Notes: a model not told the origin generated them from the sequence alone. 64,000 bases of DNA from an uncultured virus (IMG/VR IMGVR_UViG_3300035208_001903) (IMGVR_UViG_3300035208_001903), one strand, 5' to 3'; shown: positions 281 to 34,000, numbered from the stretch's first letter. Made by a program: numbers and translations.

Positions 281-467
281 CTACCCCATTCCATCTTATT
301 AATTATCAATGTATTATTATGGGGTTGGCGCGTATGTATCAAGAAATATGACTTAGAAGGATGTTCTTATTTGCAACACACGATATAACATAATGTCAAT
401 GAACAAAATACAATTGGCGCGGACCCTATACACAAACCATGATCACTATAGGTCCGCGCCATAATAT
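281..467 (-). promoter_or_regulatory. CRISPR leader with IHF-consensus site and inverted-repeat motif
   Basis: AT-rich non-coding stretch between cas6 and the first repeat. TATCAATGTATTA (304-316) matches WATCAANNNNTTR. TTGGCGCG occurs at 325-332 and 414-421. Inverted repeat GGCGCGGACC/GGTCCGCGCC at 416-425 and 451-460. Confidence 0.75.
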
Positions 468-995
468 TTAAATAAAAACGTTTAGAAAACCACAACCCAA
501 ATGTTTATATTTGCCCGGAATACCATTGATTAATATCTCTTTGAATCTAGCCGGATCATATATTGTAAAATAACCATTTATAAAGACGGTATATAAAGAC
601 ATTGTTTGTTCTTTTTTTATAAAATTTTTATTACCTTCAAATTGATAATGAAAATTTAGTTCTGATATACCAATGTTGTTAAGTTTAAGTTGTATCCAAT
701 ATTTTAGTTCGTCTATTGGTATTGGTTTATATTTTTTTATTTTATTATCACGGAAGCAACTATTAAGTCTAGTTGAAAATATATGTTGGTCATCTTTAAT
801 ACAGTATTCGTCAATATTAATATGTTTAGATGTTCCTATTTTTTTATTTGGTGGAATATTACTTAGAACTGTAATATTGTTATTATTTGTTTGGAACAGA
901 AATTTTTCTGGTTTTTCAAAGAGATTACGTAGTTTTTGATGGATTATATAATAGTCTCCATTTATTTCTGTTGGTGAAATTTTAGTTAAGTACAT
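468..995 (-). CDS. cas6: CRISPR endoribonuclease Cas6, Cas6e/CasE-like
   Basis: N-terminal MYLTKI..DYYIIHQKLRNLF..FLF and C-terminal G-loop GIPGKYKHLGCGFL parallel E. coli CasE as recalled (MYLSKV..DLYQLHQGLWHLF..FLF; GIGPAKSMGCGLL). Adjacent to the array. Confidence 0.85.
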   Translation of the reverse strand: MYLTKISPTEINGDYYIIHQKLRNLFEKPEKFLFQTNNNNITVLSNIPPNKKIGTSKHINIDEYCIKDDQHIFSTRLNSCFRDNKIKKYKPIPIDELKYWIQLKLNNIGISELNFHYQFEGNKNFIKKEQTMSLYTVFINGYFTIYDPARFKEILINGIPGKYKHLGCGFLNVFI

Positions 996-3004: not shown

Positions 3005-3025
3005 AGTAACTCCTTCTGTTAAATT

Positions 3026-5389: not shown

Positions 5390-5415
5390 ACTGTAGCCTT
5401 TCTATTAAAGTTTAG

Positions 5416-5488
5416 TAGGCCTGGAGAGATTTAAACTCTCGACTCTCACCTTAAAAGGGTGATACTCTATCAACTGAGTTACAGGCCT
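5416..5488 (-). tRNA. tRNA-Lys(UUU), atypical A19/U56
   Basis: Cloverleaf: acceptor AGGCCTG/CAGGCCT, D stem ACTC/GAGT, anticodon arm TCACC-CTTTTAA-GGTGA, T arm GAGAG-TTTAAAT-CTCTC. Followed by CTA rather than CCA. Confidence 0.88.
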
Positions 5489-7035: not shown

Positions 7036-7566
7036 TTAACTTATAAGACCATTTAGATGAAACATATCATTTATTTGTATTAAAGCCTCAGCATTACCTT
7101 TAGCATCATCAACCGGATTATGTGTATGAGAAGTTTGCCTTAATTTTTTCCAAGCACTTCCTTTATATAAATTTTTAACTAAACCAGAATAGATATCGCC
7201 AATACGTCTACCAGAAAAACCAAATGGATTTTGACCTAAGAAGTAATGGAAATAATAATTAATAAACTGCCAATCATAAGCTAAATTATCAGAATAAAAT
7301 ATCATACGATTACCATCATTATTACTATTTAAAAAACTATTGAACTCAATCATAACTTTTTTTGGATCATTAAATAACTCGTGTTGTTCTCTAGTTATCT
7401 TACTAACAGCTAATGCTAAAGGAACCCATTCACTTGATATAGGTTTAACTTCACCATAGAAAGTAGTTTTAAGTTCTCTATCAACCTTTACAACACCAAA
7501 ACATACCATTGAATATTTACCGGGAATAGGACCGTCAGATTCAACATCAATCACAAAGGAACTCAT
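7036..7566 (-). CDS. DEDDh 3'-5' exo(ribo)nuclease
   Basis: Motifs VIDVESDGP, DWQF and HTHNPVDDA. Start moved to MSSFVID because of the GAGGAG RBS. Confidence 0.85.
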   Translation of the reverse strand: MSSFVIDVESDGPIPGKYSMVCFGVVKVDRELKTTFYGEVKPISSEWVPLALAVSKITREQHELFNDPKKVMIEFNSFLNSNNDGNRMIFYSDNLAYDWQFINYYFHYFLGQNPFGFSGRRIGDIYSGLVKNLYKGSAWKKLRQTSHTHNPVDDAKGNAEALIQINDMFHLNGLIS

Positions 7567-8582
7567 TGAAATACTCCTCATCAAATAAAAGTCTAATATC
7601 AATATCTGAAAATTTATCTACTAATTTATAATAAGTAGTATAACCTAATCCTTCTAGTTTCATTTGATTAACTAATGCATTTTTAATATGAGAACGAAGT
7701 TGTATTTTCACTTTCTCTTTTATAAAATGAATATGACCTACTTTAGCTTCATCTGGTTTTAATAAATTCATTAAGTGTCTCGTTTATTTCATTTCTTATT
7801 GTTATATTAAAAAATATACGATTTCTTCTAAGTTTACCTTGTAATATTTCTAACTTTTTATAATTATTACAAAACATTTTATAGAGATCTTTTTCAATGC
7901 AATTCCAATAATTCATTCTCATTATATCCTTAAAGTGACGTATAATGCCACCTTCATTACTTATTTCTTTTAGTTTCATCTTTATTAAAATTTCCCTCTA
8001 ATGAAGTTATTACTCGACCAAAAATTAAATTATTTTTCTCAATTTTATCTTTCATTAATTTTATACTTTCGTTATTCATAATACGAAAAAGTATAAAAAA
8101 ACTAAATGGAAATATTTTTATTTGTCCAATTTGAAGTATAAAATCAGCTTCATCGAGACATTTTTTTAGTTTCATATTCTAATTGATGAGCAATAAGGTT
8201 TTGAATGACTTTCATTGTTACAGTTAAAGTAATTGATTCATCTAATAAAGCAATTCCTATATAAGAATTCCATATATGTTTTGTAAATTCATCCCATAAA
8301 CAACTTCTAATATTAGAATGAATAATTTTAGAAACACTATATTTACTATCAATTTTATTTAGTTTCATTAACTTGCTCCATAATTTTAGAATTGAGTTGG
8401 CCTTTAATTTCCTGCCAACCTATATCCCAAACCAGTGAAGTAATTTTAGACCAAATTTGATAATGAATTTGAATCACAGCTAGATCTATTAATTGCACCC
8501 AAACTAAAGAAATAATTGGCTCATTATTTTTTAATTTATTTAATTTCATTATAGGTTCATTACAAAGGTCAATTAGTTTCAT
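7547..8582 (-). repeat. tandem cluster of 5 small MKL-family genes (7547, 7749, 7957, 8150, 8355)
   Basis: 72-76 aa ORFs, each starting M(K/N)L and overlapping the previous ORF's ..NET/NEF end. Confidence 0.75.
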
Positions 8583-14687: not shown

Positions 14688-14961
14688 TTAGGTGGTATGA
14701 ATACTATGGTATATCTCTTTCATAGTTCTTTTAAGTAGTCTAGTATTAGTATTGATATTATTAAGTAGAGGTATATAGAGTTTGTTTAGAACTGTATTAA
14801 GATTAGTTGATGAATTATATTTTATGATTAGATCTTCTATTTCAGTTAGGATAGTAGAAGTAGATTTAGATATATGGTTATTATGTAGGTATAGTTTATT
14901 TGATTTATAGTTAGTGATATGATTCATTATGTATATAGGATAGTTTATTTAAAGTAAAGGA

Positions 14962-15201
14962 TTAATGTATTTTATTTACTTCATCGACTTGAGACACGAC
15001 TTGAGAACTGACTTGAGAAAAGACTTGAGACACGACTTGAGAATAGACTCGAGACACGACTTGAGAAAAGACTTGAGACACGACTTGAGAATAGACTCGA
15101 GACCAGACTTGAGACCAGACTTGAGAATAGACTTGAGACCAGACTTGAGACTCGACTTGAGACCCGACTTGAGACCTATTTTTTATTTTAGTTAGTTTCA
15201 T
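14962..15201 (-). CDS. MKL-family protein built from (x-S-Q-V)n repeats
   Basis: 12-bp unit NNN-TCT-CAA-GTC repeated about 15 times after MKLTKIKNR. Confidence 0.75.
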
Positions 15202-16790: not shown

Positions 16791-16844
16791 ACCTTTCTAT
16801 TCAGGTATGATAACAATATACATCATGGCAGTTAGTTTGTCAAG
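16791..16844 (-). promoter_or_regulatory. representative early promoter + leader module (CTTGACA-N17-TATATT, leader TCATACCTGAATAGAAAGG)
   Basis: -35 at 16838-16843, -10 at 16815-16820. The same leader recurs at 17284, 18235, 23607, 24761 and 25064. The promoter motif recurs more than 30 times in the window, mostly at 16.8-28 kb, also near 38112, 41534, 43252, 44428 and 61032. Confidence 0.85.
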
Positions 16845-16846
16845 GG

Positions 16847-17275
16847 CTATTTCATAAGAAAGTGTTTCATGCATTCCGGGCCGATACCGCGCTCAATTGA
16901 TTCAGGAGTAGTAAGGACTTTACTACACCGGCAGCAGCGCCCTTCATGTTGTATTGCATATCCTTCCGGCAATGGTTTATTATCAGCTACTTGTTTAATT
17001 GCCCATTGAATAACTTTGACGGGAATTGAATCATACTTATACTTAGACTTGGCAGTGAGTCTTATTTCGTTATGTTGTGGAATGTATATACCAAGGTAAG
17101 TATAGTCGTTTGTGTTTTGAGGACCGGTAAGGAGTTTGACAAAGAAGGGCGGGTTAGGATTATCAGTGAACTTAGGCTTACGGATTTTATAAGTATAGTG
17201 ATTGCCTTTGTTATTGCTGATGGTAAAGATTGCGTTACCGCCTGAGAAGAATCTTACGTCGTGGATATTATTCAT
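16847..17275 (-). CDS. DUF6011-like zinc-finger protein
   Basis: C-terminal GRCCRCSKVLTTPESIERGIGPEC motif. Confidence 0.75.
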   Translation of the reverse strand: MNNIHDVRFFSGGNAIFTISNNKGNHYTYKIRKPKFTDNPNPPFFVKLLTGPQNTNDYTYLGIYIPQHNEIRLTAKSKYKYDSIPVKVIQWAIKQVADNKPLPEGYAIQHEGRCCRCSKVLTTPESIERGIGPECMKHFLMK

Positions 17276-17339
17276 TGTCTAGTACCTTTCTATTCAGGTA
17301 TGACAACAATATACATCATGGTAACTAAAAAGTCAAGAG

Positions 17340-17506
17340 GGTAATTACACTTTCTAGATACGCCTACGGTAACTGAATACCGACCCGCTCCTAGTTTATA
17401 GGCTGCGGCTATATTCGTTCAACGTGACAATCCTTGCCCGGGTTTGGATTAAAGGCACTTGGGGCCTACAAGGCTCTAAGCCACGCTTGTCAAAAGTGTA
17501 ACTACC
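17340..17506 (-). ncRNA. putative structured ncRNA (~167 nt) after promoter and boxA-like site
   Basis: 14-bp closing stem GGTAGTTACACTTT/AAAGTGTAATTACC and several internal hairpins. No ORF on the transcribed strand. TGTTCTTTGAAA at 17511-17522. Confidence 0.65.
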
Positions 17507-17544
17507 TGACTTTCAAAGAACAAAACAAATATACATTATGGTAT

Positions 17545-18228
17545 TCAGTTTGTCAAGGTCTTCACGAAAGAAAGTCTACCTTTACATTTCAAACATATTC
17601 TAGTTTGACCTTGTAGTATTCTGTTATGTTTTATAGAAGTTAAATGAAACTCCCGGCAGTTACATTTATATACAAAGGGTCTTGAAACTTTTCTGGCTGC
17701 TTGGGTTTCATAAGAGTGACAACGTTCTGGAGTTAAACCAAAGACTACTATCATTATGTTTTGCCATTCCCTACCATGAGGTTTTACATTATAACCGTAT
17801 TTAACTCTATTCAACTGGTGTGCAATCTCATGCGGTATAACCTGTTTCAAGTAATGTTCTAGATTGTTCTTAGCAATTTCAAGATTGAATCTATACTTCG
17901 TGTGACAAAACATTCCACCACAATGACCTTTCAAGTCAAAGTGAACTGGTAACTTAGGTATGTTTATATCAGGAAAGACCTTAGCGATTTTATTATAGCA
18001 CTCGTTGACTTTATCTTCTATAGCAGTTTTAATATCATCATTGTGGTATGTATCTATTGAATTAGAAGTAGTTTGATTTTTCAATAGATAGTTTTGTATT
18101 GTGGCATGAACGGTTTGAACTGTTATACCAAGTTGAAGTGCTACTTGTTTTTTACTTTCGGGGGTGTTATTGATCTTACCGGTTTCAAACATCAGGCGGA
18201 TTAGTTGGGCTTTACTTATTGTTGACAT
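17545..18228 (-). CDS. SprT-like zinc metalloprotease with N-terminal HTH-like region
   Basis: VIPHEIAH (HExxH), HGREWQ, and a C-terminal CxC..H..CxxC zinc ribbon. Confidence 0.88.
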   Translation of the reverse strand: MSTISKAQLIRLMFETGKINNTPESKKQVALQLGITVQTVHATIQNYLLKNQTTSNSIDTYHNDDIKTAIEDKVNECYNKIAKVFPDINIPKLPVHFDLKGHCGGMFCHTKYRFNLEIAKNNLEHYLKQVIPHEIAHQLNRVKYGYNVKPHGREWQNIMIVVFGLTPERCHSYETQAARKVSRPFVYKCNCREFHLTSIKHNRILQGQTRICLKCKGRLSFVKTLTN

Positions 18229-18313
18229 TGAAATACCTTTCTATTCAGGTATGATATGAATATACATTGTGGGAGTTAGTTTGTCAAGAGGGTATACTTA
18301 AATACTTTATAAT

Positions 18314-18389
18314 TAGTTTAAACGGTTAAATAGAAGACCTGGTTTCGTCTTGGTTCCCTGTGCTAAGTTAATAGCAAAGATATTTCAGT
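18314..18389 (-). ncRNA. copy 1 of 5 of a ~76-nt promoter-driven small RNA motif
   Basis: ACTGAAATATC-hairpin-GGGAACCAAGACGAAACCAGGTCTT..TTTAACCGTTTAAACTA starting about 7 nt after a consensus -10. Confidence 0.65.
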
Positions 18390-18428
18390 TAGAACAATAT
18401 ACATCATGGAAGTTAATTTGTCAAGGGT

Positions 18429-18467
18429 AAAAAGAAATGGCCCGCACCGAGACAGGTACGAGCCATT
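18429..18467 (-). terminator. intrinsic terminator
   Basis: AATGGCTCGTACC-loop-GGTGCGGGCCATT followed by TCTTTTT on the minus strand. Confidence 0.8.
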
Positions 18468-18469
18468 CC

Positions 18470-18679
18470 TTCCCTTCTATACTCAACAGTCACTATCCAT
18501 TGGACTGCTCGCCTGCAAGCGACTCCATGTAAGTCCTTTGCAGAGAACTTACAATGTCGTGAGATTTTTAAAGAACAAAGTCACCATAGTTGGGATACAC
18601 AATCGAAGTATCCATTCAAGGGCTCCTGTATTGTTCTAGGGGGATAATGTTGCATTCCTAGTACAGGCTATGGCTAAAA
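18470..18679 (-). ncRNA. two tandem structured RNA domains, each preceded by a boxA-like site; the second has complementary hairpin loops
   Basis: boxA-like sites at 18680-18691 and 18566-18577. Domain 1 is closed by GCCATAG/CTATGGT with two inner hairpins. Domain 2 loops CTGCAA and TTGCAG are complementary. Confidence 0.65.
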
Positions 18680-18739
18680 TGTTAAAGAACAATCTTTCTT
18701 GTATTTATAATATACATCATGTATCTTGAAAAGTCAAGA

Positions 18740-18898
18740 GGCAATTATACTCCAGCATTTTTCCGATTTTCACGGATGGTGCTTGGATTCGCCAATTCTA
18801 AAGTCTTGATCCATATGGTCGCCTTTCGACTTGACACTCCCAGCTAAGGGTCGTGTCTTATGGATTGCAGCGTCTCGATTCCGCCAAGTATAAAGGCC
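18740..18898 (-). ncRNA. putative structured ncRNA (~159 nt) after promoter and boxA-like site
   Basis: Closing stem GGCCTTTATACTT/GAGTATAATTGCC, inner ATCCATA/TATGGAT stem enclosing two hairpins, and the same 5' leader as the 17340-17506 RNA. Confidence 0.65.
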
Positions 18899-19168
18899 CC
18901 GGACTTTCAAAGAACAAAACAAATATACATCATGCCGCACAGATTGTCAAGACCCAATTGAAACATTGTGTAACATAAGGGGTTACCTGCATTATCAACG
19001 TAGCAACCTGATGAACCAAAGCAATACCAAAGCCTACCACCATAATCAGCATCATAACAAGGAAGGAACCTACCGTGAGAAGGATAGCACCGATTGTTGC
19101 AAGCATTTCATTTCTCCTTGTTTAAGTTATGATACTAATATACATCATGGTACTTAGTTTGTCAAGAC

Positions 19169-20183
19169 CTATTCAAATTTATATACTGAAACATTTGGAC
19201 CGTTTCGCATATCGTTTGAAACAATAACAGCTTCAACAAGGTCCCACTCACTACAATCAATGTTTCTCCACTTAGCAATATAACCGGCATGTTTTGAACA
19301 AGCTATCGGCGCCTCCCGTTGCATTGAACCAATATTATAACCTTGATCTTGCATATACTTTATAGCTTTATTAACAGCTTTAAAGTCTTCTGAACTGTCA
19401 ACACTGAACATAAGATCATACTTTCGGTTAGTTGATGTGGCGATTTCTTTTACGTCTTTAAGTGAACTCATAATGTTTTCCTTTCAGTTAATCTTAATAT
19501 ATATCATGGTACTTAGTTTGTCAAGAGTTATTTAGATTTCTTTTTAAGTTGTTTCAATGTTTCACCGCCGCCGCAATCCTTAGTATTTTTATATTGACAA
19601 GTCTTGCAGGCATTCAATCCTTCAAACTGTACTATCCAACAGTCCGAAGTTAATGTAGACTGATCAATTTCCTTTGAGAACGTAGGAACTATTTGGCCGT
19701 TTTCAATCTTGGCTTTTTGATAAAGCATTGTTAGTTTCCTTTCAGATTATTTTATCGTCCTTACCAATTGTATAGCTTGAACCACGACTTCTTTTAGTAA
19801 GCATCAAAAGAAAAACGGGTTTCCATCCAGATGTCACACCAATAGTACCCCGTTTCTTTTCATAACCAAAGTCAACAGTTACACGTTCACCACTGTTAAA
19901 TGCTGGTATAAAAGATTTATTAAGATCGGAAGGATCAAACGACTTACCATATTCACGTTGTTTACGTTCAATATAATCATTAAATTGCATTGTTAGTTTC
20001 CTTTCCAAGATATTTTTCTGTATAGTATTCAATTGCTTTAACGTTATCAGTTTCATAAAAGAGAACGTTATCGGTTAGGTTATAAGTATTACAAAGGAAT
20101 TGACCTAACCTCAGAGGATTCTTTTTGGTCTGATAATACTCTAAGACGATTGCATTGAATTTGATTATAGGTTCGTTATTCAT
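19169..20183 (-). CDS. small early hypothetical proteins (19169, 19528, 19742 with probable start MQFND near 19990, 19980)
   Basis: Short ORFs behind consensus promoters or GAAAGG RBS sites. Confidence 0.55.
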
Positions 20184-20506
20184 AGTTATAATATACTATA
20201 TGGTTTTAGGTTTGTCAAGAGGGCAAGATATATTATGATTAAGTAAATATGTTACGCGCTCAACAACAAACTTATTCAACGGAGGTTTAGCCTGAGTTCC
20301 AAAGATGGCTTTATTACTATTAGTATCAACAACAACCCAGCCCTGATAGTTCTCTTGATACTCTGCCTTGTATCTTTTAAGAACCTCTGTATGTTGAATT
20401 GTTTTTCTCATGACAATAATATATATCATGCCTAACGAAATGTCAAGAGTTGTTTTAATTTAAATAAGACCTTGACAAATTAACTACACTGATGTATATT
20501 GTTATT

Positions 20507-20582
20507 ACTGAAATATCTGGTGGGTCTTAATTCACCGGGGAACTAAGACGGGACCTGGTCTTTTATTTAAGCGGTTAAACTA
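20507..20582 (+). ncRNA. copy 2 of the ~76-nt small RNA motif
   Basis: Same conserved blocks, hairpin TCTGGTGGGT/ATTCACCGGG, own promoter at about 20472-20500. Confidence 0.65.
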
Positions 20583-20598
20583 AAGATTAAATAAAACA

Positions 20599-20622
20599 AG
20601 AGGAGACCTTTCGATCTCCTCT
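20599..20622 (-). terminator. intrinsic terminator hairpin
   Basis: AGAGGAGA/TCTCCTCT stem with a T-rich tail on the minus strand, downstream of the 20657 gene. Confidence 0.65.
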
Positions 20623-20656
20623 GTTTCCAATTAAGTGAATCTAATCTAGTTGAAGA

Positions 20657-20821
20657 TTATTCCCGGCCAACCGCCCTGTCAACCGCCTGCTTGACCGTCT
20701 GAGGAGTCATACCGACCTTCCGGGCGATCTCGCTGTTCGACATCTTGGACATCTTCGCCAGGACCACCGCCGCCGCCGACCGACTCTTGTACTGCACCGC
20801 TCCCATTTTGTAGGCCTTCAT
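20657..20821 (-). CDS. small HTH DNA-binding protein, GC-rich gene
   Basis: YKSRSAAA..SNSEIARKVGMTPQTV HTH pattern; paralog of 26207-26404. Confidence 0.75.
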   Translation of the reverse strand: MKAYKMGAVQYKSRSAAAVVLAKMSKMSNSEIARKVGMTPQTVKQAVDRAVGRE

Positions 20822-20932
20822 GTTTGGCCCCTTTCTTTGATTGAAGTGATTAAGCATTGAAGTCTTCTTGTTTCTCATGTTACTAATATACATCATGGTA
20901 CTGAGTTTGTCAAGGGGTAAAGTTAATTATTT

Positions 20933-21429
20933 TTAAAGGATAAGATCTTCAAGGTAATCGGGTTCCAGTCCGTATTCCTCTTCCATAAAATCAAACGGCA
21001 TATCGCCATCTTCCAAACGGGCAGTCAAAGCATTTTTGGCCCGGGCAATTTCTTTATCAGCTTCTTCTGCCGTCATGCCGTCACGTTCCATCAAGACCTT
21101 TTTAAGTTCGCTCATACAATATCCTTTCTGTTAAGTGTAAGGATAATATAATTCATGGTACTGAGTTTGTCAAGGGGTAAAGTTAATTATTCTACCCATA
21201 TTAAATTATCATCACAGTAATCATATATTTGGCTTATAACTTTATTAAACTTTGCTTCAGTTTTAACTTTCTTAATAAAAGGAATGAACTGCTTAAGGCA
21301 TGATATACTTGAAAGCCGTTCAATCCATAAAGGTTTAATTCGTTCAATTTCAATTAATTCATCAGCTGCTGAAGAATCATATGAGTAGATTAAATCCGTA
21401 AGTTTGATCTTCTGTTTCCAGTTTGCCAT
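20933..21429 (-). CDS. two small early hypothetical proteins (20933-21115, 21187-21429)
   Basis: Each has a near-identical ~60-bp promoter/leader module. Confidence 0.6.
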
Positions 21430-21569
21430 ATTGTTTCCTTTCTGTTAAGTGTAAGGATAATATATATCGTGGTACTGAGTTTGTCAAGGTTTATTTTAAT
21501 TTAAATAAGACTTGACAAACATCTCGCCATGATATATATTATGTATACCTAAACGAAAGAAGGTATTCA

Positions 21570-21926
21570 ATGCCAAGAGGTCGAAAGCCAAATCTTAATC
21601 CTGTAACAGTTGATACTTCCAAACTTGCAACCCTGCCTGAAACCAAAGAGAAAAACGGATATCATTATACCTTGGTAACTCGTTCAGCCAAAGCCGCAAT
21701 ATATAAAATGGTGAACCTGAAAGAACCTGAAGACAAGTCAGTTCATTATGAGGTATTCAAAGTCTGTATAGCACCGGCAGTTACATTAATAAGTAAAACA
21801 TCTGGCAAGGCTTATGTATATCCACCTACTGAAAGATTTCCCGGTAATAATGACTTTGGTGTTTATGCCTGGACATATAACACTAAAGAATATGCAATGC
21901 AGAAATATAACGAACTGAACAAATAA
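21570..21926 (+). CDS. hypothetical protein with AT-hook-like N-terminus
   Basis: Starts MPRGRKP; has its own plus-strand promoter at about 21512-21540. Confidence 0.65.
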   Translation: MPRGRKPNLNPVTVDTSKLATLPETKEKNGYHYTLVTRSAKAAIYKMVNLKEPEDKSVHYEVFKVCIAPAVTLISKTSGKAYVYPPTERFPGNNDFGVYAWTYNTKEYAMQKYNELNK

Positions 21927-21965
21927 GACCTTGACAAATTAAGAACCATGATGTATATTGTTATT

Positions 21966-22044
21966 ACTGAAACATCTGAGCGGGTAGTCTAACCGGTCGG
22001 GGAACTAAGACGGAACCTGGTCCTTCATTTAACCGCTTAAACTA
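21966..22044 (+). ncRNA. copy 3 of the ~76-nt small RNA motif
   Basis: Conserved blocks after the promoter at about 21931-21959. Confidence 0.62.
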
Positions 22045-22266
22045 AAACTATAAAAAAAGGAATGAGTACCTTTAGAATGATCAATTCCAAGGTACTCATC
22101 TTAGACCTTCTCGAGTGTCTAATTTATAACTACTATACCTGATGATGAATCGTATGCGTAGGATATTGAATAGTTGTTTCTAGAATAAACTATCTCACCT
22201 AGCAGAAAACGTATCAAACAGATAGTTCGTTATTTATCCTCTCTTTCAGTTCATACATAATATACA

Positions 22267-22644
22267 TCATGTCTTTAAAAAAGTCAAGGCCCAGTTTAAT
22301 ATTTTTTTAGGTGAAGTCTGTTGATTGATAGTCGGTTCAATTGTTTTAATCATTATAGGATTAGTTTCAATGCCATTACGTTTTAAGTATTGTTCAAGTG
22401 CTTTACGTCTGGCATTAATAGTAATAGGTGAAGTAAAAGACTTACTTTTATTTAATTGTTGTTCTAGTTTATATAGAAGGTTAGTTTTAATAACTTCCTT
22501 AATATGTCTACATGTTCTACGGAAAGCAAAGCCTGAACAAGTACAATAGATTGAATTATTAGTCTTAGTAAGTTTATATGTTGAGCCAGACTTACTATGA
22601 CAAACAATTAAATTATCTTGGATAGTAAAGGTATCTTCAGTCAT
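22267..22644 (-). CDS. SWIM zinc-finger protein
   Basis: [14 protein letters not shown] (CxC..CxH). Confidence 0.75.
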
Positions 22645-22875
22645 TTATTTCATTTCATTGACTTGAGACTCGATTTGAGACCAGACTTGAGAACTGACTT
22701 GAAACCAAACTCGAGACCCGACTTGAGACCAGACTTGAGAATCGACTTGAGACTCGACTTGAGACCCGACTTGAGACCAGACTTGAGAATCGACTTGAGA
22801 CCAGACTTGAGAATCGACTTGAGAATCGACTTGAGACCTGACTTGATCCCTATTTTTAATTTGTCTTAGTTTCAT
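22645..22875 (-). CDS. MKL-family protein built from (x-S-Q-V)n repeats
   Basis: 12-bp repeat array, about 16 units. Confidence 0.75.
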
Positions 22876-23843
22876 TCGTCTGATTCTTCTGGCTCTTCAG
22901 GAGCTTCAATATTAAGGGAAGGGAAATACATAATACTATCCATACCCATTGAATCAGTATGCATATCACGAAAACAATTAATAACAGTTTGCTTAGTTGT
23001 AAATGGTAAAGAAACTAATTCTTCCATTGTACATGATTCTACCATATCAATAATAAATCCAGCAATAGAACCGATAGACCCAACAAGACCAAAACATTTC
23101 TTTCCATACATAGCACGCCCGGAATAATTATAATATGGTTCCAGTTTATTATCTTCAGCACAACTAATTATATCTTGAGCAATATCTGAATCAGAATCAA
23201 TTGTAATGTTATTCATACTGTTTCCTTTCAGTTAATTTGTCAATCTATATCAAGATGTTTAATACAAAAATCAGCGGCACCTTCATAATCATCATACCTA
23301 AAATAATTAGCACGTTTATATGCGGTTTCAGTAATTCCTTCAAACGGCATACTCTCTTTACCGGTAGAAGGATATACTACAATATCATCTGAAGAACGAT
23401 TCTCAGAAAATGCAACCCAAGTATACTTCGGTTTATCACCATTAATATCACCAAGATTACCAATTATAAAACCTTGTTCCCTACAATTCTGATAATGGTT
23501 CAATGTCAAATAATCATTACTTTTAATTGTCTTAAGTTTATAATTAATCGTCTGAAGAAGTTTTCGTGCCACATCAACTTTATTCGTGTGAATTTTCATA
23601 ATGTTTCCTTTCTATTCAGGTATGATATGAATATACATTATGGCTAAGTAAATGTCAAGAGGTAATTTCATCAAAAGAATTTCTTAATACATTATAGGCT
23701 ATTGCATTATCAATCTCTATATCTACATAATTCCCATTCTCATTAACTATATAACCAGTATAAGACTTATTACCACTACAAAACTTGGTTGTATTATTAC
23801 TTAACTTTAAATTAGTTCCTCTTTTAAACTTTAACTTAGTCAT
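22872..23843 (-). CDS. three hypothetical proteins (22872, 23240, 23655)
   Basis: Co-oriented ORFs with RBS. 22872 has a YSGRAMYGKKC motif seen in phage hypotheticals. Confidence 0.55.
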
Positions 23844-24087
23844 TTAGTTTCTCCTCATTTACTTGAGACCTGACTTGAGACCAGACTTGAGACCAGACTT
23901 GAGACCAGACTTGAGAATCGACTTGAGACCTGACTTGAGAAAAGACTTGAGACACGACTTGAGAATCGACTTGAGACCAGACTTGAGACCTGACTTGAGA
24001 AAAGACTTGAGAACTGACTTGAGAACTGACTTGAGACCTGACTTGAGACCAGACTTGAGACTGATATTTTATATTAGATAGTTTCAT
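23836..24087 (-). CDS. MKL-family protein built from (x-S-Q-V)n repeats
   Basis: 12-bp repeat array, about 17 units. Confidence 0.75.
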
Positions 24088-25055
24088 ATAACTTTAAGGA
24101 AGTCTTCAACGGTATGTGCATTCAAAGCATTACGAATATACCTGACATCATTACCACCAATCACCCTACGCCCATTCCCTTGCTCCTCTGCAATCACTCT
24201 AGCACGGTCTATCTCATAAGACTTCTTGGTAAACTCTTTAACAGGATTAAGTTTTGAATTATTCCTAACTTCAAATTCATCCGCTTTATCTTCACAAGCA
24301 CCGTCATAACTATTTTCAAATCCCATAATTCCTCCTTAATCAATCCATGAACTTACTTCAATACCATCATATCCATAATCTTTCAATGTCTTAATGGCAG
24401 CCTTACACTCTGCAACATTAACTGACATCTCCTGCCGACAAAGTGAAGTAATAATAATCAATTTATAATCAAGAACTCCCTTATACATAATCCAACTTCT
24501 GTTATTACCAGACCACTCATTATTCATAAACGGTATATTTTTCTTAATAACTTTAACTAACTTAGATCTTCCATCAAGCGATATGCTAGCTCCTCCACAT
24601 ACATCCAACATAGTCCCAACACACTTATTATCATTCAACTCATCATGAACTGTATATGCAGGTCCACGGCTTTTCAATTCATTAAGAACATTCTTTCCGG
24701 CAAGAGTAGCACTTTCAACAACCTCGTTCATTACATCATTAATTGATTTCATAATACATTCCTTTCTATTCAGGTATGATATGAATATACATTAGTGAAG
24801 TTAATTTGTCAAGGCTTATTTTGACCGCCCAGTTGGTAGATACCTTTCAATTTTCCTACGATAAAAACCAAACGGGAATGACGTATTAAGAATACTCGGA
24901 TCCTTAATAACACCAACACTATCCAATCTAAACCATTTGTCTTTATCAATAGGATGCACTTCATCAACACCAGCAATAGTCTTTTCACCAATTGACAACA
25001 GACGATATCCCTTACCCGGATCGTAGGCCTGATACAAATTGTGATTGGTTTTCAT
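24084..25055 (-). CDS. three hypothetical proteins (24084, 24336, 24816)
   Basis: ORFs behind promoter/leader modules. Confidence 0.55.
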
Positions 25056-25175
25056 TACTAATTCCTTTCTATTCAGGTATGATATGAATATACATCATGC
25101 CCATTAAAATGTCAAGAGTTATTCTAAACTAAATAAAACCTTGACAAACCTAAAACCATAATGTATATTGTTATA

Positions 25176-25250
25176 ACTGAAATATCTGGTAGACTAAATC
25201 TACCGGGGAACTAAGACGAAACCTGGTCTTCTATTTAAGCGGTTAAACTA
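25176..25250 (+). ncRNA. copy 4 of the ~76-nt small RNA motif
   Basis: Hairpin TCTGGTAGA/TCTACCGGG; promoter at 25141-25169. Confidence 0.65.
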
Positions 25251-25357
25251 AAGGTTAAATAAAAATAGCACTCCAACCACTAACAGGATTGGAGTGCCCT
25301 AAAATTTAAATTTTCAAACTTTAAGTAAATTAGAATTAAGTATTATGTGTTTTTAAT

Positions 25358-25885
25358 TTACGCCGGGACCTCCTCGGTCGAAGTGACTGCTACCGGTTCC
25401 GGAGTCTCAGTAACAGTGTTGTCAACAGGCGCCGCTTCCGGTTCCTTATCCTTCTTTACCTTCTTGGCTTTCTTGGACTTCTTGGCAGGCTTTTCCTTTG
25501 CCGGTTTCTTTGCGGCCTCTTCCTTCTGCCGCTTTTCAATATCTTCTTTGGTGGGAAGATGTTCGATACCAGCCTCTTTCAGGATCTCATTCAAAGCGGC
25601 CTTTGAAATCTCAACACGCTCTGAAATCATATTGGCGCTGTAATTGCCGGTCTTGGCCAAATGCAATGCCCTGTATGCCATATGACGGGCCGCAACCTTA
25701 CCATTCTTATCCAGAGCAGCCGCAACTGTCTGGGCCGAAATAACATCCTTCTTGGCAGCCTCGTTGATTACCTTGGCAATCTCTGAGGAACTGGTCATTC
25801 CACCCTTGGCCAATGCCCTTGCCGCATCAGAAGCCGAATTATACTCCACACCCTTAACCATAACTACTACACCTTTACGTGCCAT
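25358..25885 (-). CDS. HTH protein with Lys/Ala/Pro-rich histone-H1-like tail, GC-rich gene
   Basis: GVEYNSASDAARALA..SEIAKVI..AQTVAAA is related to the two small HTH proteins. Tail AAKKPAKEKPAKKSKKAKK. Confidence 0.7.
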   Translation of the reverse strand: MARKGVVVMVKGVEYNSASDAARALAKGGMTSSSEIAKVINEAAKKDVISAQTVAAALDKNGKVAARHMAYRALHLAKTGNYSANMISERVEISKAALNEILKEAGIEHLPTKEDIEKRQKEEAAKKPAKEKPAKKSKKAKKVKKDKEPEAAPVDNTVTETPEPVAVTSTEEVPA

Positions 25886-26206
25886 CAGCAACCCCTTTCA
25901 TTGAGTTAATATCCGTTCCAGCCATTCAAATAACAATATACATCATGCCCTTGAAAAAGTCAAGGGGCAAAATTCATTTCTTGACGATACCTTTTAGGCT
26001 TTATCACTTTAAAAATATTCATATCATACTTGTTAGAAACAACCTTAACTGCTTCTGCATAACTCTTTGCCAGTATAAACATTGCACCACGAAGATGATT
26101 CACTTCAATATTTACACGATAACTTTTCATATAGTATCCTTTCTCTCGCCAGTCTATACGACCTGAGAAACTTTCCTGTTTGCCCTGGATAAGCCAGGGC
26201 ACTAAC

Positions 26207-26404
26207 CTAACTGCGCCGGAGCAGCCCACCGACCCCGAGGTCCCGGGCCATCTTCGCCGCCATCGCCGCCGACACCGTGGCCGACCGGATCCCGACCTTC
26301 TTGGCAATCTGCTTCACCGGCATATGAGGATACCGGACCGCCATCGCCACCGCCGCCGCACTCCGACTCTGATACTTAATCGCCCCAAGCTTATAGACCT
26401 TCAT
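26207..26404 (-). CDS. small HTH DNA-binding protein, GC-rich gene
   Basis: YQSRSAAA..VKQIAKKVGIRSATV; paralog of 20657-20821. Confidence 0.75.
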   Translation of the reverse strand: MKVYKLGAIKYQSRSAAAVAMAVRYPHMPVKQIAKKVGIRSATVSAAMAAKMARDLGVGGLLRRS

Positions 26405-26489
26405 AAGGTCTCCTTTCATTGTTTGTTTAGGGGTCTTCTTTTCCATGCTTATAATATACATTAGTGCTGTTAGTTTGTCAAGTCTTATT

Positions 26490-27611
26490 TTAAACTATTT
26501 TATATAGAATTTCATGTTTCAAATCGTGTATTGCTGAAACTATCTTATCATAGCCTTTATAATTATGATTGACTCCACCGATATAATCTTTCATATGCTT
26601 AACTTCTCTTACATAAAATTCATGTTCAAAAAATCTATAGTCTGATGAACTGAAATAAATCATACAATCATCAGTAAACTTAATAAACGCAGAACAACAA
26701 TAATGATTAGGATGAAAGTCAACTGTAGCTTGTGGGAAACTCTTAACTAACAATGCCTTAAGCCGTCTGGTCTGAAGTTTTCCTTTAGGTCCCATATATC
26801 CACCAGTTTCACCATCCATAGGAACATAAACTGAATTCATTGTTCATCCTTTCGTTATAGAACTAATATACATCATGGTAACTAAAAAGTCAAGAGTTAA
26901 TCCCATTTAACATTTTCAAGGTCTTCCGTGGTAGGTACTTTCCAATTAAGTATCTTACCTGTTGCTAGTTCTATATCAATCATTATATAATCACCATAAT
27001 GATCTCCAGGCATGAATTCAGGAACATAACCATCTCTTGAAGCTAACTGATTACCTATATCATCTAACAAATCAACACTACAACAATCACTACACTTAGC
27101 AACAATACTAATAACCTTTGCATTACTGGGATTCATACTAACTCCTTTGGTTTAGTTTCTTTTATTTGTTGCTTTATTTTTTCCCATGAATGAGATAAAA
27201 TCTGGTTATCAATTATATCTATAACTTTATGAAATATTACAGGATCCATTTGCGACATTATTTTAAATAAACAATCACCCCACAATGCCTTCTGAACTTT
27301 TATATTAGATAGTTTCATTGCCCTAGTATTCCTTTAACGGCATCAGCTACTTCATCCTGTTTATCAATACTATTAGGGCAAATCTTATTGTTACAATGAG
27401 CTCCATCTACTAACTCACTACCACATAAATCGCATTCGTTCTCAAACCTTACTATAACTGTTTCACCATATATATCAGTAAAACACTTAATCAAATTGTT
27501 CCTAACCCAAACCTTCTCCTCATTATCAAAATCAGTACCTAAATCAAGTTCCGTATATATCCCATCAATACCAACAGAACTATCCCCTTTAGTCGTCAAT
27601 GTTACCTTCAT
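26490..27611 (-). CDS. early hypothetical proteins (26490, 26897, MKL-family 27133, 27315)
   Basis: ORFs behind promoter/leader modules. Confidence 0.55.
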
Positions 27612-27996
27612 TTGTATCCCCTTTCGTTATAGAACTAATATACATCAGGTAAACTAAATTGTCAAGAGTTATTTTAAATAGAATAGATCTGAAGGTTTGA
27701 TTTAGGATTTTTAAGAACTAACTGAGACATATCCATATTAACATTAAACCAACTATCATACAATTTAACCGGATGAAAACCAGCTATACTAAACTTACCA
27801 GACTCACAATATACCTTCTCAATACAACTCCTTCTAGACCTCTCCATTGAAGGATACATTTTAATACCTATATAATACATACTATGCCTTTCATTTAAGA
27901 TACAACTAATATACATCATGCCTAAGCAATTGTCAAGGTCTTATTTAAATTAAAATAACTCTTGACTTCTTAGTTACCATAATGTATATTGCTATA

Positions 27997-28075
27997 ACTG
28001 AAATATCTGATAGGTCTTCTATATCTATCGGGGAGCAAAGACGGAACCTGGTCTTCTATTTAAGCGGTTAAACTA
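27997..28075 (+). ncRNA. copy 5 of the ~76-nt small RNA motif
   Basis: Hairpin TCTGATAGGT/ATCTATCGGG; promoter at 27962-27990. Confidence 0.65.
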
Positions 28076-28076
28076 A

Positions 28077-31000
28077 TTAAATAAACTTCATATGTATTTC
28101 ACCCATCATTATATTATAAGCACTAATATCTGCCATAATAAGAAAATTATCAATACATCTATTACTTAATACTTCCCTAATATAAAAACTAATAAGTATT
28201 TCATTATATAACCTAATCTCCATATCCCAATATAAATCCATATCAATATCATGATACAACCTAGAAGAACTATTACCAATACAATCACTTAGTCTCATAT
28301 ATCTCACTTTCAATCATATTACTTAATCTAATAAACACCTGATACCTATCTATAATAGTCATATATATAATCTCTGGTACTATCCAATCTAAACTATCCT
28401 TTAATATATCAAAATTAATCGCGCCAACTACATAATTATTATAATCACCATCCTTTAAATTACTTAACCTCATATAATCCTATTAACTCCCGTTTAACTA
28501 TACTACCAATCATATCCATATTCCCTAAACTCGATATTTCCACACTAAAATTATCCTGTATCTTATCCAATATATCTAAATCAAAACAACTCCATATACT
28601 TAACTCTAATATCTGTATCATATCAATTACTATACCATTAACATTCATTATATCATTTAACCTTAACTGCTTCATGTAACTCCTCCCCTAATATATCCTT
28701 ACATATCCTTATAGAACTAAACCCTATTAATGAACTCACTTCCTTAGGCAATATCTCCCTTAAATCCAACTTCAAATACAATAACCTATCATTAACCTTC
28801 CATATATCATTTAACCTTAACTGCTTCATGTAACTCCTCCCTTAATATAGCCTTATCAATTATTACCCAACGAAACTCTTCCCGGTTATACATACTTATA
28901 GGCACTAATATACTTAACTTATCCTTGAAATACAATAACCTATAATACGCAATAGTATCAAACACACAATCCCAATAAACTATATTATCCTTAACCTCTC
29001 CTAACTTCATCTATACCTTCCCTTATTAACCTTAGTATACTAAGTTCCATTAAAATCGATGGCTGTAACTTAATCAACCATATTTTAATAGAACCATTAA
29101 TTAAACTATCTAACCTATTATTAATATCCCCAAAATAAGAATTATACATATAAGACCGCTTACGTAACTCTCTTAACTTCATATACACCAGCCCTAATAT
29201 AAGGATAAAGTAATCCTACTACCTTTAAATAAACAGAATACTCTAACCTACGTAAAACCATTAAAGAACTACTATAACTTAATGCAACTATCCCATCAAT
29301 AGAACAACTACACTCCCTTACATATCTCTCAACCCCTATATAACACTGTAACCTAATATTGTCTATATCCCTTACTTCATCTAGTCTCATTTAACCTCCT
29401 ACGCTTATAAGTAGCATATATCTCCAACTCAATTAAATCCTCTATAGGATTCTTATAATATCTCCTAGTCATTCCACAACCACTCATATAACTTGGTACT
29501 AAATACTCCATCCAGTCTATAAACCTTTGCAAATTAATCCTGTTCTTATTAATCTCAATTAACTCCCAATACATATCATCCATTATATCTACACCTATAT
29601 AATCACCTAGTCTCATTAATACCCTCCAAATAACTCATCATTGATACTGTTACCTATTGAATATATCAAACTACTATCTATTACATTCAAATCAGCAGCG
29701 TCAAATAACCAACAGATTTCATATAACATATCACTTACCATATCATGTAACACCTTAGGGTCTTCCATCCACTGAATACTATCTAACTCACTTAGTCTCA
29801 TACACCCTCCAATACCTTATCTATACTTACTTCATCTATAGCACTATCAATAAAATTAATCGATTCCATATCTATTGCCATTAACTCATTACTAAGTAAA
29901 TAAACCTTAGGATACTCTAACAACTTATTATGAAGTTCACTTATTGCAACAGGATTAAACATATACCTGTTATTCTTTATATCCATTAACTTCATCTATA
30001 ACATCCTTTACATAAAGAGACGAAAGAACATCTACACAATCCCATTCACTACTCTGTAATAACATAAGTATACTAACCTCATTCCTAACAGTAATTATCC
30101 AATCATTTATAAACCTGATACTAGGCATATACACATATCTACGACTATGATTACTTATCTCTATTAACTTCATCTCTTATACCTCCAGTAAACAAATCCC
30201 AATCATCACTCTGTAAACTTAAAAACCTATCAAAATATCCCCAATCTAACTCCCTAGTCTCCTTGTAAACTATATCCCATATCTTACCCTCTAAATCTAC
30301 TTCACCCCAATCTAACCATCTATTAATTTGTATATCCAATAGTTTCATGTATCTTCTCCAATATCAATAAACGATCTCTACCAAAACTATCTCTATCCAA
30401 TTTAACTCCAAACCTTTGCCATACCCGAGTCAAACAAGTATCAGGCACAATACTATCCCATAAAAGACTATTAAACCTAACAAACTCATTACCACGCATC
30501 TCACCATCTACCATATCAATTAAGTCAATCCCATCCTTAATATCCCTTAGTCTCATAAGATTCCTTTTACATTATCTATTTCAGTTCCTATAAACCATAT
30601 ACCGGTCCAAAGTAAATTCATAAACTTCTTTTCGACTATAGCCATATCATCTTCTTCTAACTGTATTAAAACTTCACGAAACATAGTTGAATCCATATCC
30701 ATAGTACTATTACTGATATGGGAAACAATACCTATAGTTTCTTTTACCTTAATGGAGTTATCAATATCTATTAGTTTCATGGTTTATTACTTGGTCTAGG
30801 ATGGATGAGTAGCACTGTTTTAGGTTAAGTTCGACAAATCTTCTGACTTTAGTATCCATAGTTGTTCTGTGACCGTTAAGCCAAGTTGATTCGAATAGGT
30901 TAAACTTAATAGGTGCTAGACAGAATTGGATATCGATATGATGACTAGTGATATATTGGTTATTAGGTTTAAGGTTAAGTAGTTTCATTGACTTGATCCA

Positions 31001-34000
31001 TGACTTGAGAAAAGACTTGATCCATGACTTGAGAATAGACTTGAGACACGACTTGAGACACGACTTGAGAACTGACTTGAGAATAGACTTGATCCATGAC
31101 TTGAGAATAGACTTGAGAATAGACTTGAGAATCAGTATGTCTTTTAGTTTTGATATCAATAATTTTCATGAAATATTGCCTTGTTTATCCCAGTAGCAAT
31201 AGGGAGATAGCAGTGTTGGATGACTTTAGTTCTGACGATTACCTTTAGTTTTTTTGTGATTAGACAATATACATCGTGGGTTGTTTGGTTTGCCATAAGT
31301 AATTCTAGTTCAGAGTCTATGTAGTTCCAGAACCGATTGGATTGTTTTTGGTTAAAGCGTTGGTACAGTTTTCTATCGTTGACATTGCAGTTAAGTAGTT
31401 TCATTTTAGTTTTAAGGTATAGTTGGAGGGGGTATCGTACCTAAAGTTAGTATAGTATTAGGAATTAGGTATAGGTATGTAAGGATTAGAATAGATAATG
31501 GGTTAGGTGTAGTCATAGTGGGGAAATGTGGGTAGGAGTGGATTATTAGTAAGATTGATTTGGTTAATTATTAAGGATTGTATGTTTAATTTTAAGTTAT
31601 TGTTAAGATTAAGATTTAGTTTAAGATAGATTGAATTAAATTTATTTAGTCTCATACATTTAGAAACAAAGTCCCAGAGTGGGCTATGTATATTATTCCA
31701 AACGATTTGATCTATATTGATTAGTATATGATCATGAATTTGGTAACGGGATCTGATTGGGTTTTGGGTTTTAAAGTTATTTAGTTTCATAGTGATTTTA
31801 TTTTGGTTTGTGAGTTTATTTGGGATTGAATTAGAGGAATAGTTTGGTATTGGAATTCGGATTTAACAACGGTTGAGAGTTTTAAGTATAGATTTAAGTT
31901 AGTATGAGGAGATGTATTATGGAGGATGATTGAGCTAATATGGGATTTTATATTATTCCAGACAATAGTAGAGTGAGATAGGTAGCATTTATTTTTAAAT
32001 TGTTTTAGTTTCATTTATTTGTTCCTTAATTAAAGAATAGACTTGATCTTTGACTATATCTTTAGCTTGAAAATAGACTTTATAATCTTGAGAATCTAAT
32101 TTAGAATAAACATGATACCAAACTTGAGAAAAAACGTGATAATTAACTTGAGTATTAACTTGAGTTCTATTATTTAAGTTAGTTAGTTTCATATATAATC
32201 ATATAATTTCGTTAGTATTAAAACTCGATCATCGCCTATACTATTTAAACTACTATTAAATTTATTCCATATTATATTTAAACATAGAGTACTTAAGTCA
32301 ATATTATTAAATAATAAACCTTTAAATTTAACGAATTCATTACAAGTAGATTCACCATTGATTACTTCAATATATTCAGGGCCGCTTGATATATCTATTA
32401 GTTTCATATTTTAGTTTCGACGATTTGATCATAGATTATACGCATTATTTTTTGTTTAATTTCATTATTAATATAAGCATAAAGATTATTATATGATATA
32501 ACTCTTTGTGTAGGTTGTATTGGTTGTATAGTATAATGCCACATCTTAAGATCTATAATATGAAGACTTTCTGGATGAATTTGAAGTTGAGATAATAAAA
32601 TTATGATTTGATGATTTGATAATTTTGAGTTAGTTAGTTTCATTTATTTGGTCCTTAATTTTATCCCAGACATGTAACCAGACTTTAGAATCGACTTGAG
32701 AATCTAATTCATAGCTATATTGATAATAAACATTAAATTTAGTTTTGGAATAGAATATAGACTTAAAATTATTAATAACATGAGATTCAATTAGTTTTAT
32801 ATTTCTATTCCAGATTTGAGATTTGACATCATCTTGATTGTTTAAGTTAGTTAGTTTCATTTATTTTGGCCTTAATTTGGGACCAGACACGAGAAAAGAA
32901 TTGAAAATAGATTTGATACCTGATTTGAAACCAGAGTGAAGAAATGAATTGAGAACTGAATTGAGACCAGACTTGAGAATAGACTTGATTCTTGAGTTGA
33001 GAATTAACTTGCGAATAGACTTGAGACACAACTTGATTTTTAGTTGTTACGTTAATTAGTTTCATTGACTTGGTCCTTTATAGATGATATTGCTACATTA
33101 TACATATTATGAAATTCAGACGGAAACACAAAATGATATCGAACAATAGGAGCAATTTGATATCTGACGTCATACATATCTTGTTCTATCAGTAATTTAG
33201 AATAGAATGCATTATCAAAAATATAATCTGCATTTTGATGAGTTAAGTTAGTTAGTTTCATAGTTTAAGGTATCATTATTTGGTTAGTTATTAAGGATTG
33301 CATATTTGATTTAAGATTTGTTTTGAGATTAAGATGTAGTTTAAGATAAATAGAATGAAATTTAATTGTAATAATATCTTTATAAGTAGAGTCCCAGATT
33401 TTGATATTTAGATTATTCCAAACCATTTGATCTATATTGTTTAGTATATGATCTTTGATTTGGGATCTAATTGGTTTTTGGATTTTAAAGTTATTTAGTT
33501 TCATATATTACTTGATTTAAAATTTGATGATAACATTGTCTTAGTTTAATTTGAATATGTTTTCTAACATTAATATCCATAACAGTTTTATATCCGTTTT
33601 GCCAAGTTTGTTCGTATATGTGATTTTCTATAGTGCCTAAAATAGATCTGATATTATTATGGTTGGTTTCTGATATTTTAAGATCTATTAGTTTCATTTA
33701 TTTTACCTCTAACTTCAAAGTATAGATAAGACCATACCCTAGAATCTACTTTAAAACTAACCTGATTTAGAACATTGTCCCAATCATGAAAACTAATTTG
33801 ATCCTTAACTATTTGATTAATTCGAGACATAAATTGGTATTTCTTATTTTCTATAAATCTGTGGCTATTTAGTTCCATATATTTTTCTTTCAACAAAATT
33901 AGCTACCGTTATCTATCAATGTATATTTAAATGTTTCATTAATTTCATCTTTTATTCTATAATAAACCAGCCTCCATACATAAGGTATATTTTGCCTTAT

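Follow-up and report, generated by a model that had tools for sequence, protein, structure and literature searches.

A promoter-to-terminator unit of an uncultured large phage that most likely specifies an RNA of two folded parts, conserved in a second strain

What is made from a phage unit in which a strong promoter and a strong intrinsic terminator enclose some 270 nt with no conserved protein gene? The question is raised by a locus in a 64,000-nt stretch from an uncultured virus (IMG/VR IMGVR_UViG_3300035208_001903), the whole of which we call the window. At 18429..18720 a preliminary description had placed a unit made up of a promoter and two RNA domains, each preceded by a boxA-like motif, followed by a terminator, and every one of these elements was found in the sequence, on the minus strand. 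Our reading is that the unit, which holds no conserved protein gene, most likely specifies a two-part folded RNA that has been kept in a second strain. Its parts are as follows.

18737-18709, minus strand: promoter P3, TTGACT, 17-nt spacer, TATATT; host-type, by pattern match
18691-18680, minus strand: boxA1, TGTTCTTTAACA = UGUUCUUUAACA; pattern match, about +12 to +23 from the likely start
18674-18583, minus strand: domain D1, three-way junction; minimum-free-energy fold and centroid identical
18674-18668 with 18589-18583, minus strand: D1 helix P1; predicted fold
18667-18657 with 18640-18625, minus strand: D1 helix P2, with a 16-nt loop; predicted fold
18613-18608 with 18598-18593, minus strand: D1 helix P3; predicted fold
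18577-18566, minus strand: boxA2, TGTTCTTTAAAA = UGUUCUUUAAAA, in the D1-D2 linker; one mismatch to boxA1
18563-18482, minus strand: domain D2, four-way junction; RNAalifold consensus of two alleles
18563-18560 with 18485-18482, minus strand: D2 helix P0, CUCA with UGAG; invariant between alleles
18553-18528, minus strand: D2 hairpin H1, loop CUGCAA at 18543-18538; RNAalifold
18522-18509, minus strand: D2 hairpin H2, loop UUGCAG at 18518-18513; 4-5 bp, invariant
18508-18504 with 18490-18486, minus strand: D2 helix H3, 5 bp; RNAalifold
18474-18429, minus strand: intrinsic terminator, a stem of 16-20 bp and then a U run

A transcript of about 270 nt is likely, with a predicted start near 18702. 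Promoter P3 belongs to a family of 35 matches to TTGAC[AT]-N16-18-TATA[TA]T in the window, 29 of them on the minus strand, and a stricter form of the pattern matched 22 times against 0.00 expected for the window. Most other members of the family are followed immediately by a ribosome-binding site and an ATG. Two sets of promoters depart from this: behind three on the minus strand (those of the unit under study and of two others, units A and A') stands a boxA-like motif with ORF-less sequence after it, and five others belong to copies of a module that consists of a promoter and a small RNA.

18950-18741, minus strand: unit A, with promoter P4 (18950-18922) and a boxA-like motif, UGUUCUUUGAAA (18916-18905), at the transcript start; pattern matches
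17556-17340, minus strand: unit A', a promoter and boxA-like motif ahead of ORF-less sequence; closed by a 15-bp stem, z -2.41
18300-18428 (minus strand), 20462-20600, 21921-22062, 25131-25268 and 27952-28093 (plus strand): the five copies of the promoter and small-RNA module, about 135 nt each

Unit A, with about 170 nt lacking an ORF, reads into promoter P3 and the D1/D2 unit, and its predicted fold is no better than that of shuffled sequences (z -0.41). Units A and A' share an identical 29-nt promoter-start junction in front of unrelated bodies. The five-copy module has a predicted transcribed part of about 100 nt in which unpaired blocks are strongly conserved and the first hairpin, though variable, stays paired through changed pairs (UA, GC and AU at one pair); it has no Rfam match. 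One copy lies immediately downstream of the terminator of the unit, where only 4 nt separate the terminator end from the -35 hexamer of the next promoter. Two strong promoters (18424-18396 and 18287-18259) stand between the terminator and the next gene, which is SprT-like, so that directly after the terminator come two promoters and the small-RNA module, and no ORF. The genes downstream are on the same strand as the unit.

To learn what has been kept, the unit must be compared with relatives. A metagenome scan with the 21-mer common to the promoter-boxA junctions of A and A' gave 10 loci: one is identical to the window (L014), one a variant of a neighbouring stretch (L012) and one, L011, a diverged strain that carries the whole unit; the remaining 7 of the 10 proved to be unrelated sequence, without rRNA or tRNA, and were discarded. 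With the window as reference, identity in L011 is 100% over the promoter-proximal 5' end with boxA1, 98% over D1, 95% over the neighbouring SprT-like gene and about 80% over the D2 core, the most diverged segment; unit A' is 98.9% identical. Within and beside D2 the two alleles differ by indels of 44, 1, 1, 2, 6 and 4 nt. The 44-nt insertion (L011 1327-1374) lies between D1 and D2 and has its own hairpin, which shows the linker to be tolerant of an extra module. Promoter P3 of L011 is a recombinant form in which the -35 hexamer and spacer are swapped for those of P4.

The stretch is present, in full or in part, in about 19 DNA runs, most of them metagenomes from landfill and groundwater, and among the runs listed is one RNA run, with 0.06 of the stretch's words. 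We compared contigs of four runs, all DNA contigs. Those of X4, X5 and X8 cover 18258-18425 and 18574 onward, with 18426-18573 unaligned at 80% likeness, and those of X7 have matching joints at 18425/18507 and 18526/18574. That 18426-18573 had been replaced by unrelated sequence in X4, X5 and X8 was considered and dropped, as L011 has a homologue there, too diverged to pass the 80% alignment limit. A contig of X8 (depth 92) runs from 18708 straight to 18922, with 213 nt deleted; this is the same P4/P3 join as in L011, and it accounts for the absence of unit A from L011 and the main X8 strain. The two structural variants in the Logan contigs, the P4/P3 join and the D2 swap, are those of L011, and the D2 module is swapped in X4, X5, X7 and L011. 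The promoter array at 16800-28000 as a whole behaves like a set of recombination joints, in which modules are swapped between strains and clean deletions run from one promoter to another (18708 to 18922, 17565 to 18389), and the 35 promoters bound units that are gained, lost and swapped between close relatives.

Beyond these strains the searches returned no relative of the unit. Neither megablast nor blastn gave DNA similarity between the window and GenBank phages; pattern scans of IMG/VR gave no homologue, their three chance matches being rejected by a D2 covariance model, and a search of IMG/VR by the neighbouring SprT-like protein found no relative. In GTDB genomes the invariant H2 18-mer hit 27 loci, all of which score at most 20.3 bits against 104-109 for true copies and are chance matches. 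The nearest virus record, G001 (137.8 kb, estimated 53% complete), is the same phage, with 100% identity to window 33483-53332 and 99.99% to 53333-64000, and its contig stops short of the D1/D2 region. The phage genome is larger than 170 kb, and the neighbours of the unit in it are small early genes.

Elsewhere in the window, tandem 12-nt repeats (units like GACTTGAGACCA) lie inside at least six small minus-strand ORFs, with matches in G001 at 70-85% identity, and may represent a shared repetitive peptide module. Other features of the window are a cluster of candidate counter-defence or nucleotide-metabolism genes on the minus strand (56914-62537) and an ORF at 7036-7602 for a protein resembling 3'-5' exoribonucleases.

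14949-15199, 22623-22923, 23811-24135, about 30980-31150, about 32850-33070 and about 38770-38960, minus strand: tandem 12-nt repeat sites
56914-57843, minus strand: RlaP-family nucleotidyltransferase
58765-59937, minus strand: nicotinate phosphoribosyltransferase-family protein
61974-62537, minus strand: NUDIX hydrolase

Does the unit encode a protein after all? The preliminary description had called it ORF-less, which is right in that no ORF is conserved and too strong in that a mechanical search for ORFs gives seven, of 20-77 aa, that overlap it. The D2 indels exclude a long ORF across D2 on either strand, and the 77-aa ORF, on the plus strand, has no Pfam match and no counterpart in L011. 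One small candidate deserves attention.

18615-18568, minus strand: 15-codon micro-ORF, MDTSIVYPNYGDFVL, with AGGAG at 18627-18623, 7 nt before the ATG

The unit might accordingly be a gene for this 15-aa peptide, with the surrounding RNA as its untranslated regions. The distance from AGGAG to ATG is the spacing of this phage's genes, and the first 11 codons are identical in L011. Yet L011 has lost the stop, which alters the C-terminus (22 aa, with a D-to-Y change), so that the ORF is not maintained between the alleles and the micro-ORFs differ in length; the Shine-Dalgarno sequence and start codon both lie inside the predicted P2 and P3 stems; and a peptide would leave unexplained the compensatory changes in D2 and the 180 nt past the stop. 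We consider a peptide gene very improbable.

The fold of the transcript points in another direction. The 274-nt minus strand has a predicted energy of -88.4 kcal/mol (z -4.68), matched by none of 200 shuffles, whereas the plus strand of the same region has no excess stability over shuffles (z -0.90). D1 alone has a z of -2.27, with 6 of 200 shuffles equally stable, and its predicted fold agrees with the three-way junction described for it earlier. Across D1 the alleles differ at two positions, both in or beside helix P1, and both changes strengthen pairing in L011 (a G.U pair becomes A-U, and an A/G mismatch becomes A-U). The support for the modelled D1 fold consists of its energy and these two substitutions, the alleles being nearly identical there. 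An Rfam search, which the preliminary description had proposed, gave no family match for the unit: at gathering threshold Rfam 15 found no family besides one tRNA in the whole window, and in 18200-19200, with E up to 10, the best match was Thr_leader, on the terminator, at 22.8 bits against a gathering threshold of 55.

In D2 the greater divergence makes the comparison more telling, although it remains a single pairwise one, of the two alleles in all the data searched. Hairpin H1 has 10 bp and an extra C-G past a small internal loop; between the alleles two of its pairs are changed on both sides, one goes from G.U to A-U and one is broken. In H3 one pair is changed on both sides and another on one side. 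D2 thus has three compensatory pairs, two one-sided changes and one broken pair in all. An explicit structure of the D2 core pairs 59 of its 60 cells, and shifting the 3' partners 1-3 columns out of register brings this down to 30-40%; a shuffle control on D2 covariation gave 61 of 500, from two rows, which put significance out of reach. The terminator has changed in a like manner: its stem is heavily substituted in L011, with four pairs double-changed and two changed on one side, and a 16-bp stem is kept.

A rival fold of D2 had to be weighed. In the window allele the minimum-free-energy structure is another, long hairpin, at -28.5 against -26.7 kcal/mol for the junction, in which the two presumed loops pair with each other as an ordinary stem. 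In L011 the order is reversed (junction -27.6, long hairpin -24.8 kcal/mol) and the inner part of the long hairpin is lost. Because the junction is favoured in L011 and the hairpin is not kept there, the hairpin was ruled out and the junction taken as the conserved D2 fold. Inside the otherwise diverged domain stand an invariant block, centred on H2 and its flanks, and the 6-nt loop of H1, a pattern that points to sequence-specific recognition, whether by a partner loop or by something else. With the D2 covariance model the two alleles score 109 and 104 bits, and no further copy or paralogue appeared in the window, G001, L011 and L012.

The preliminary description had gone on to propose functional RNAs, and what stands of this is a folded RNA under selection, its D2 helices and terminator having been kept through paired changes in L011. 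On these grounds we regard a conserved structured non-coding RNA as supported by the sequences. Could the unit instead be non-functional filler, or the remnant of a decayed gene, caught between recombining promoter cassettes? A mosaic array with deletions and swaps at its promoters is what such filler would be found in, and unit A does fold no better than shuffles. Against it stand the compensatory changes in D2 and the terminator, the strand-specific fold, and a D1 that is more conserved than the flanking gene (98% vs 95%), and we find this the hardest of the alternatives to credit.

The feature that first drew attention to the locus was a possible kissing interaction between the H1 and H2 loops. 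CUGCAA and UUGCAG are indeed exact 6-nt complements at the positions first described for them, each with the self-complementary UGCA inside it, yet such a pair does not stand out from chance. For a control we counted, on both strands, pairs of hairpins (stem 4 bp or longer, loop 6 nt, separation no more than 30 nt) with exactly complementary loops: the window has one, H1/H2, while 20 block-shuffled windows had 1.55 on average (range 0-4). Chance alone would therefore be expected to give a perfect 6-nt loop-loop match about once per 64 kb. Covariation of the two loops in homologues, proposed earlier as a check, was not seen: both loops are invariant in the two alleles, which puts kissing beyond the reach of covariation.

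If the loops did pair, they would give a compact fold when pairing within one molecule, or dimers or rings when pairing between molecules, in the style of phi29 pRNA or ROOL/GOLLD. By analogy there is something to be said for this: kissing-loop multimers are documented for phage RNAs (excerpts of bioRxiv 10.1101/2024.12.08.627333 and PMC4201828), and in L011 the loops are unchanged though 5 of 20 H1 stem positions have changed. That same invariance offers no covariation, the loop pair occurs at the chance rate, and RNAalifold closes H2 with an additional U.G pair, which may leave a UGCA tetraloop in place of the six-nucleotide loop. Moreover, H1 (10-13 bp) and H2 (4-5 bp) are neighbouring junction arms of very unequal length, and their tips would for this reason be unlikely to meet within one molecule; pairing between molecules is the one sterically plausible form. 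Overall, we judge loop pairing to be quite unlikely.

How such an RNA might be made is suggested by the motif behind its promoter. The published boxA consensus is UGCUCUUUAACA for E. coli and AUGAUCUUUGAAA for B. subtilis rrn, according to excerpts of PMC13753749. boxA1 agrees with the E. coli consensus at 11 of 12 positions, and the motif of units A and A', UGUUCUUUGAAA, with the last 12 letters of the B. subtilis consensus at 11 of 12. A Firmicutes host was considered and dropped, since nothing in the data points to a host. At up to two mismatches the 12-mer occurs 24 times in the window against 18.1 expected, which is no enrichment; the ORF-less, promoter-proximal sequence of the three units, about 630 nt, holds four of the copies, all on the minus strand, where our own estimate of the expectation is about 0.1. 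In L011, the one homologue, boxA1 is 100% conserved. boxA2 reads TGTTTTAAATAC there and is followed by the 44-nt insertion, so the early statement that each domain follows a boxA is true of the window allele and fails in L011, where boxA2 is lost. We take boxA1 as a reasonable candidate for a boxA and boxA2 as a weak one.

Antitermination through boxA is also found upstream of other untranslated RNAs, for example CRISPR operons, and the phage carries a CRISPR-Cas system (window 1-5389, minus strand). In its array, spacers of 34-35 nt separate 32-nt repeats, of which four are complete (49-280) and a fifth is truncated at the start of the window; the window showed no adaptation genes, and the spacers read from it had no full-length match among the sequences searched. 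The leader (394-459, minus strand) holds a 15-bp hairpin at 459-416 and then TGTTCATTGACA at 405-394, with two mismatches to the boxA-like motif of the phage. It may be a further boxA, placed before an untranslated transcript, though a weakly matching one that contains TTGACA. A tRNA-Lys(UUU) at 5415-5488 (minus strand), the sole tRNA in the window, lies directly beside cas3.

468-995, minus strand: Cas6/CasE-like gene
986-1879, minus strand: gene for a 297-aa protein
1880-3004, minus strand: Cas7fv-like gene
3026-5389, minus strand: Cas3 gene, with HD and helicase domains

Putting these elements together, we propose that the unit would be a self-contained non-coding RNA gene in an early part of the phage genome that is dense in promoters. 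On this view the RNA polymerase of the host would initiate at the consensus promoter P3 and come to an rRNA-type boxA within about 20 nt. Next would follow D1 and D2, a three-way and a four-way junction that would fold as independent modules, and last the strong intrinsic terminator, where transcription would end and whose hairpin would also cap the 3' end. boxA1 might recruit the host's NusB/S10, so that the untranslated transcript would escape Rho and fold as it is transcribed, as in rrn operons, and the AU-rich linker is a possible processing site from which D1 and D2 could be freed. The RNA would act in trans early in infection, recognised through hairpin H2 with its flanks and the H1 loop, and its partner in takeover of the host or in counter-defence may be either a protein or a different RNA.

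An evenly balanced proposition, in our view, is that the product is a discrete early RNA that acts in trans and is synthesised with the help of an rrn-type boxA. It is favoured by a promoter, boxA and terminator that all lie on one strand and by the strand-specific stability of the fold; the loss of boxA2 in L011 and the micro-ORF with a good Shine-Dalgarno sequence in D1 weigh against it. A scan of the window for antisense targets (k=11) gave 16 matches against 13.3 in shuffles, which is the level of chance, and the phage's own CRISPR repeat has no copy near the unit.

The same layout, with boxA directly behind three promoters on one strand, a terminator after the folded domains and downstream genes on that strand, would also suit a leader that acts in cis. 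By analogy with lambda nut, HK022 put or the rrn leader, boxA and the folded RNA would modify their own RNA polymerase so that transcription from P3 and P4 reads through the terminator into the SprT-like gene and beyond; in a variant, the unit would be a riboswitch with the terminator as its expression platform. But the next gene has two strong promoters of its own past the terminator, which makes read-through control seem redundant. Nor did Rfam match a riboswitch, EAR or other leader with E up to 10, and the consensus fold contains no alternative pairing between D2 and the terminator. For a riboswitch in particular we found no aptamer family, no helix that competes with the terminator and no ORF directly downstream. 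A leader acting in cis therefore seems to us unlikely, if still to be reckoned with.

That boxA RNA can titrate NusB is known from older work on lambda. The four boxA copies could be a decoy: boxA RNA from three strong early promoters would swamp the cell and draw NusB/S10 off the host's rrn operons as part of shut-off, the folded domains serving mainly to stabilise the decoy. Four TTGTTCTTT motifs on the minus strand, in three promoter-proximal ORF-less units behind promoters of consensus strength, are what this would call for, and boxA alone is reported, in excerpts of PMC13753749, to be sufficient to trigger formation of the antitermination complex. It sits less well with L011, where boxA2 is dispensable and unit A absent (as unit A is from the main strain of X8), and it leaves the sequence-invariant H2 block and the conserved D2 junction unexplained; we hold it to be improbable. 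Equally improbable, in our estimation, is a more elaborate picture in which the array imitates a miniature rRNA operon: boxA promoters would drive helix-closed stable RNAs (A, A', D1 and D2), copies of D2 would join one another in trans through the UGCA-centred loops, and the dimer or ring so formed, of RNA alone, would capture a host factor in takeover, with the boxA copies drawing NusB/S10 off host rrn operons.

If the trans-acting RNA is the reading to pursue, it is worth asking which described systems come closest. The first is the rrn leader with its Nus-factor antitermination (boxA, NusB/S10). Like it, the phage unit has a strong promoter, a boxA 12-mer within about 20 nt of it and an untranslated, helix-closed RNA downstream, and the 15-bp closing stem of A' resembles a processing stem. 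Unlike it, the phage product is not ribosomal and sits in an early cassette array, and boxA2 is not conserved; no boxB or boxC was identified in the phage unit.

The second is the PeSL cassette of T4-type phages, a composite early-promoter and stem-loop motif that mediates modular shuffling (excerpts of PMC4122927). Here too, near-identical early promoters flank small units that can be exchanged, as the clean P4-P3 deletion and the swapped D2 module illustrate. PeSL cargo, however, is a small protein gene whereas that of the phage is folded RNA; the phage repeats are promoters alone, most units having no terminator, and there is no DNA similarity to GenBank phages.

Other phage RNAs are more distant. 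Like phi29 pRNA, this one is a phage RNA with an early promoter, a three-way junction and two mutually complementary loops; unlike pRNA, its 6-nt loops lie in a different domain from the three-way junction, it has no match to the Rfam pRNA family, and its phage is not phi29-like, with a large genome (>170 kb) that carries CRISPR-Cas and has small early genes beside the unit. ROOL and GOLLD are RNA-only cages held together by intermolecular kissing loops (excerpts of bioRxiv 10.1101/2024.12.08.627333). They share with our unit a phage-encoded structured RNA for which loop-loop contacts are proposed; they are 500-800 nt or more with deep covariation, whereas this RNA has about 270 nt, two alleles and no Rfam match. 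HK022 put, lambda nut and EAR-type elements are promoter-proximal folded RNAs, with or without boxA, in phage early transcripts. The phage unit differs from these in having no family match and its own terminator, with a next gene that has its own promoters. The nearest designs, then, are the rrn boxA leader and PeSL arrays, and the RNA itself is in no described family; among the titles and abstract openings returned by a full-text literature search, no title describes such a unit.

The biology that would follow can be stated in three parts. First, if the RNA is made, it would represent an undescribed class of structured RNA in the early host-takeover toolkit of large environmental phages. Second, the phage would in that case have borrowed the host's antitermination signal for rRNA and put it to use for a non-coding RNA and not for gene expression. 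Finally, RNA genes, like protein genes, would appear to travel in promoter-bounded cassettes that recombine between strains.
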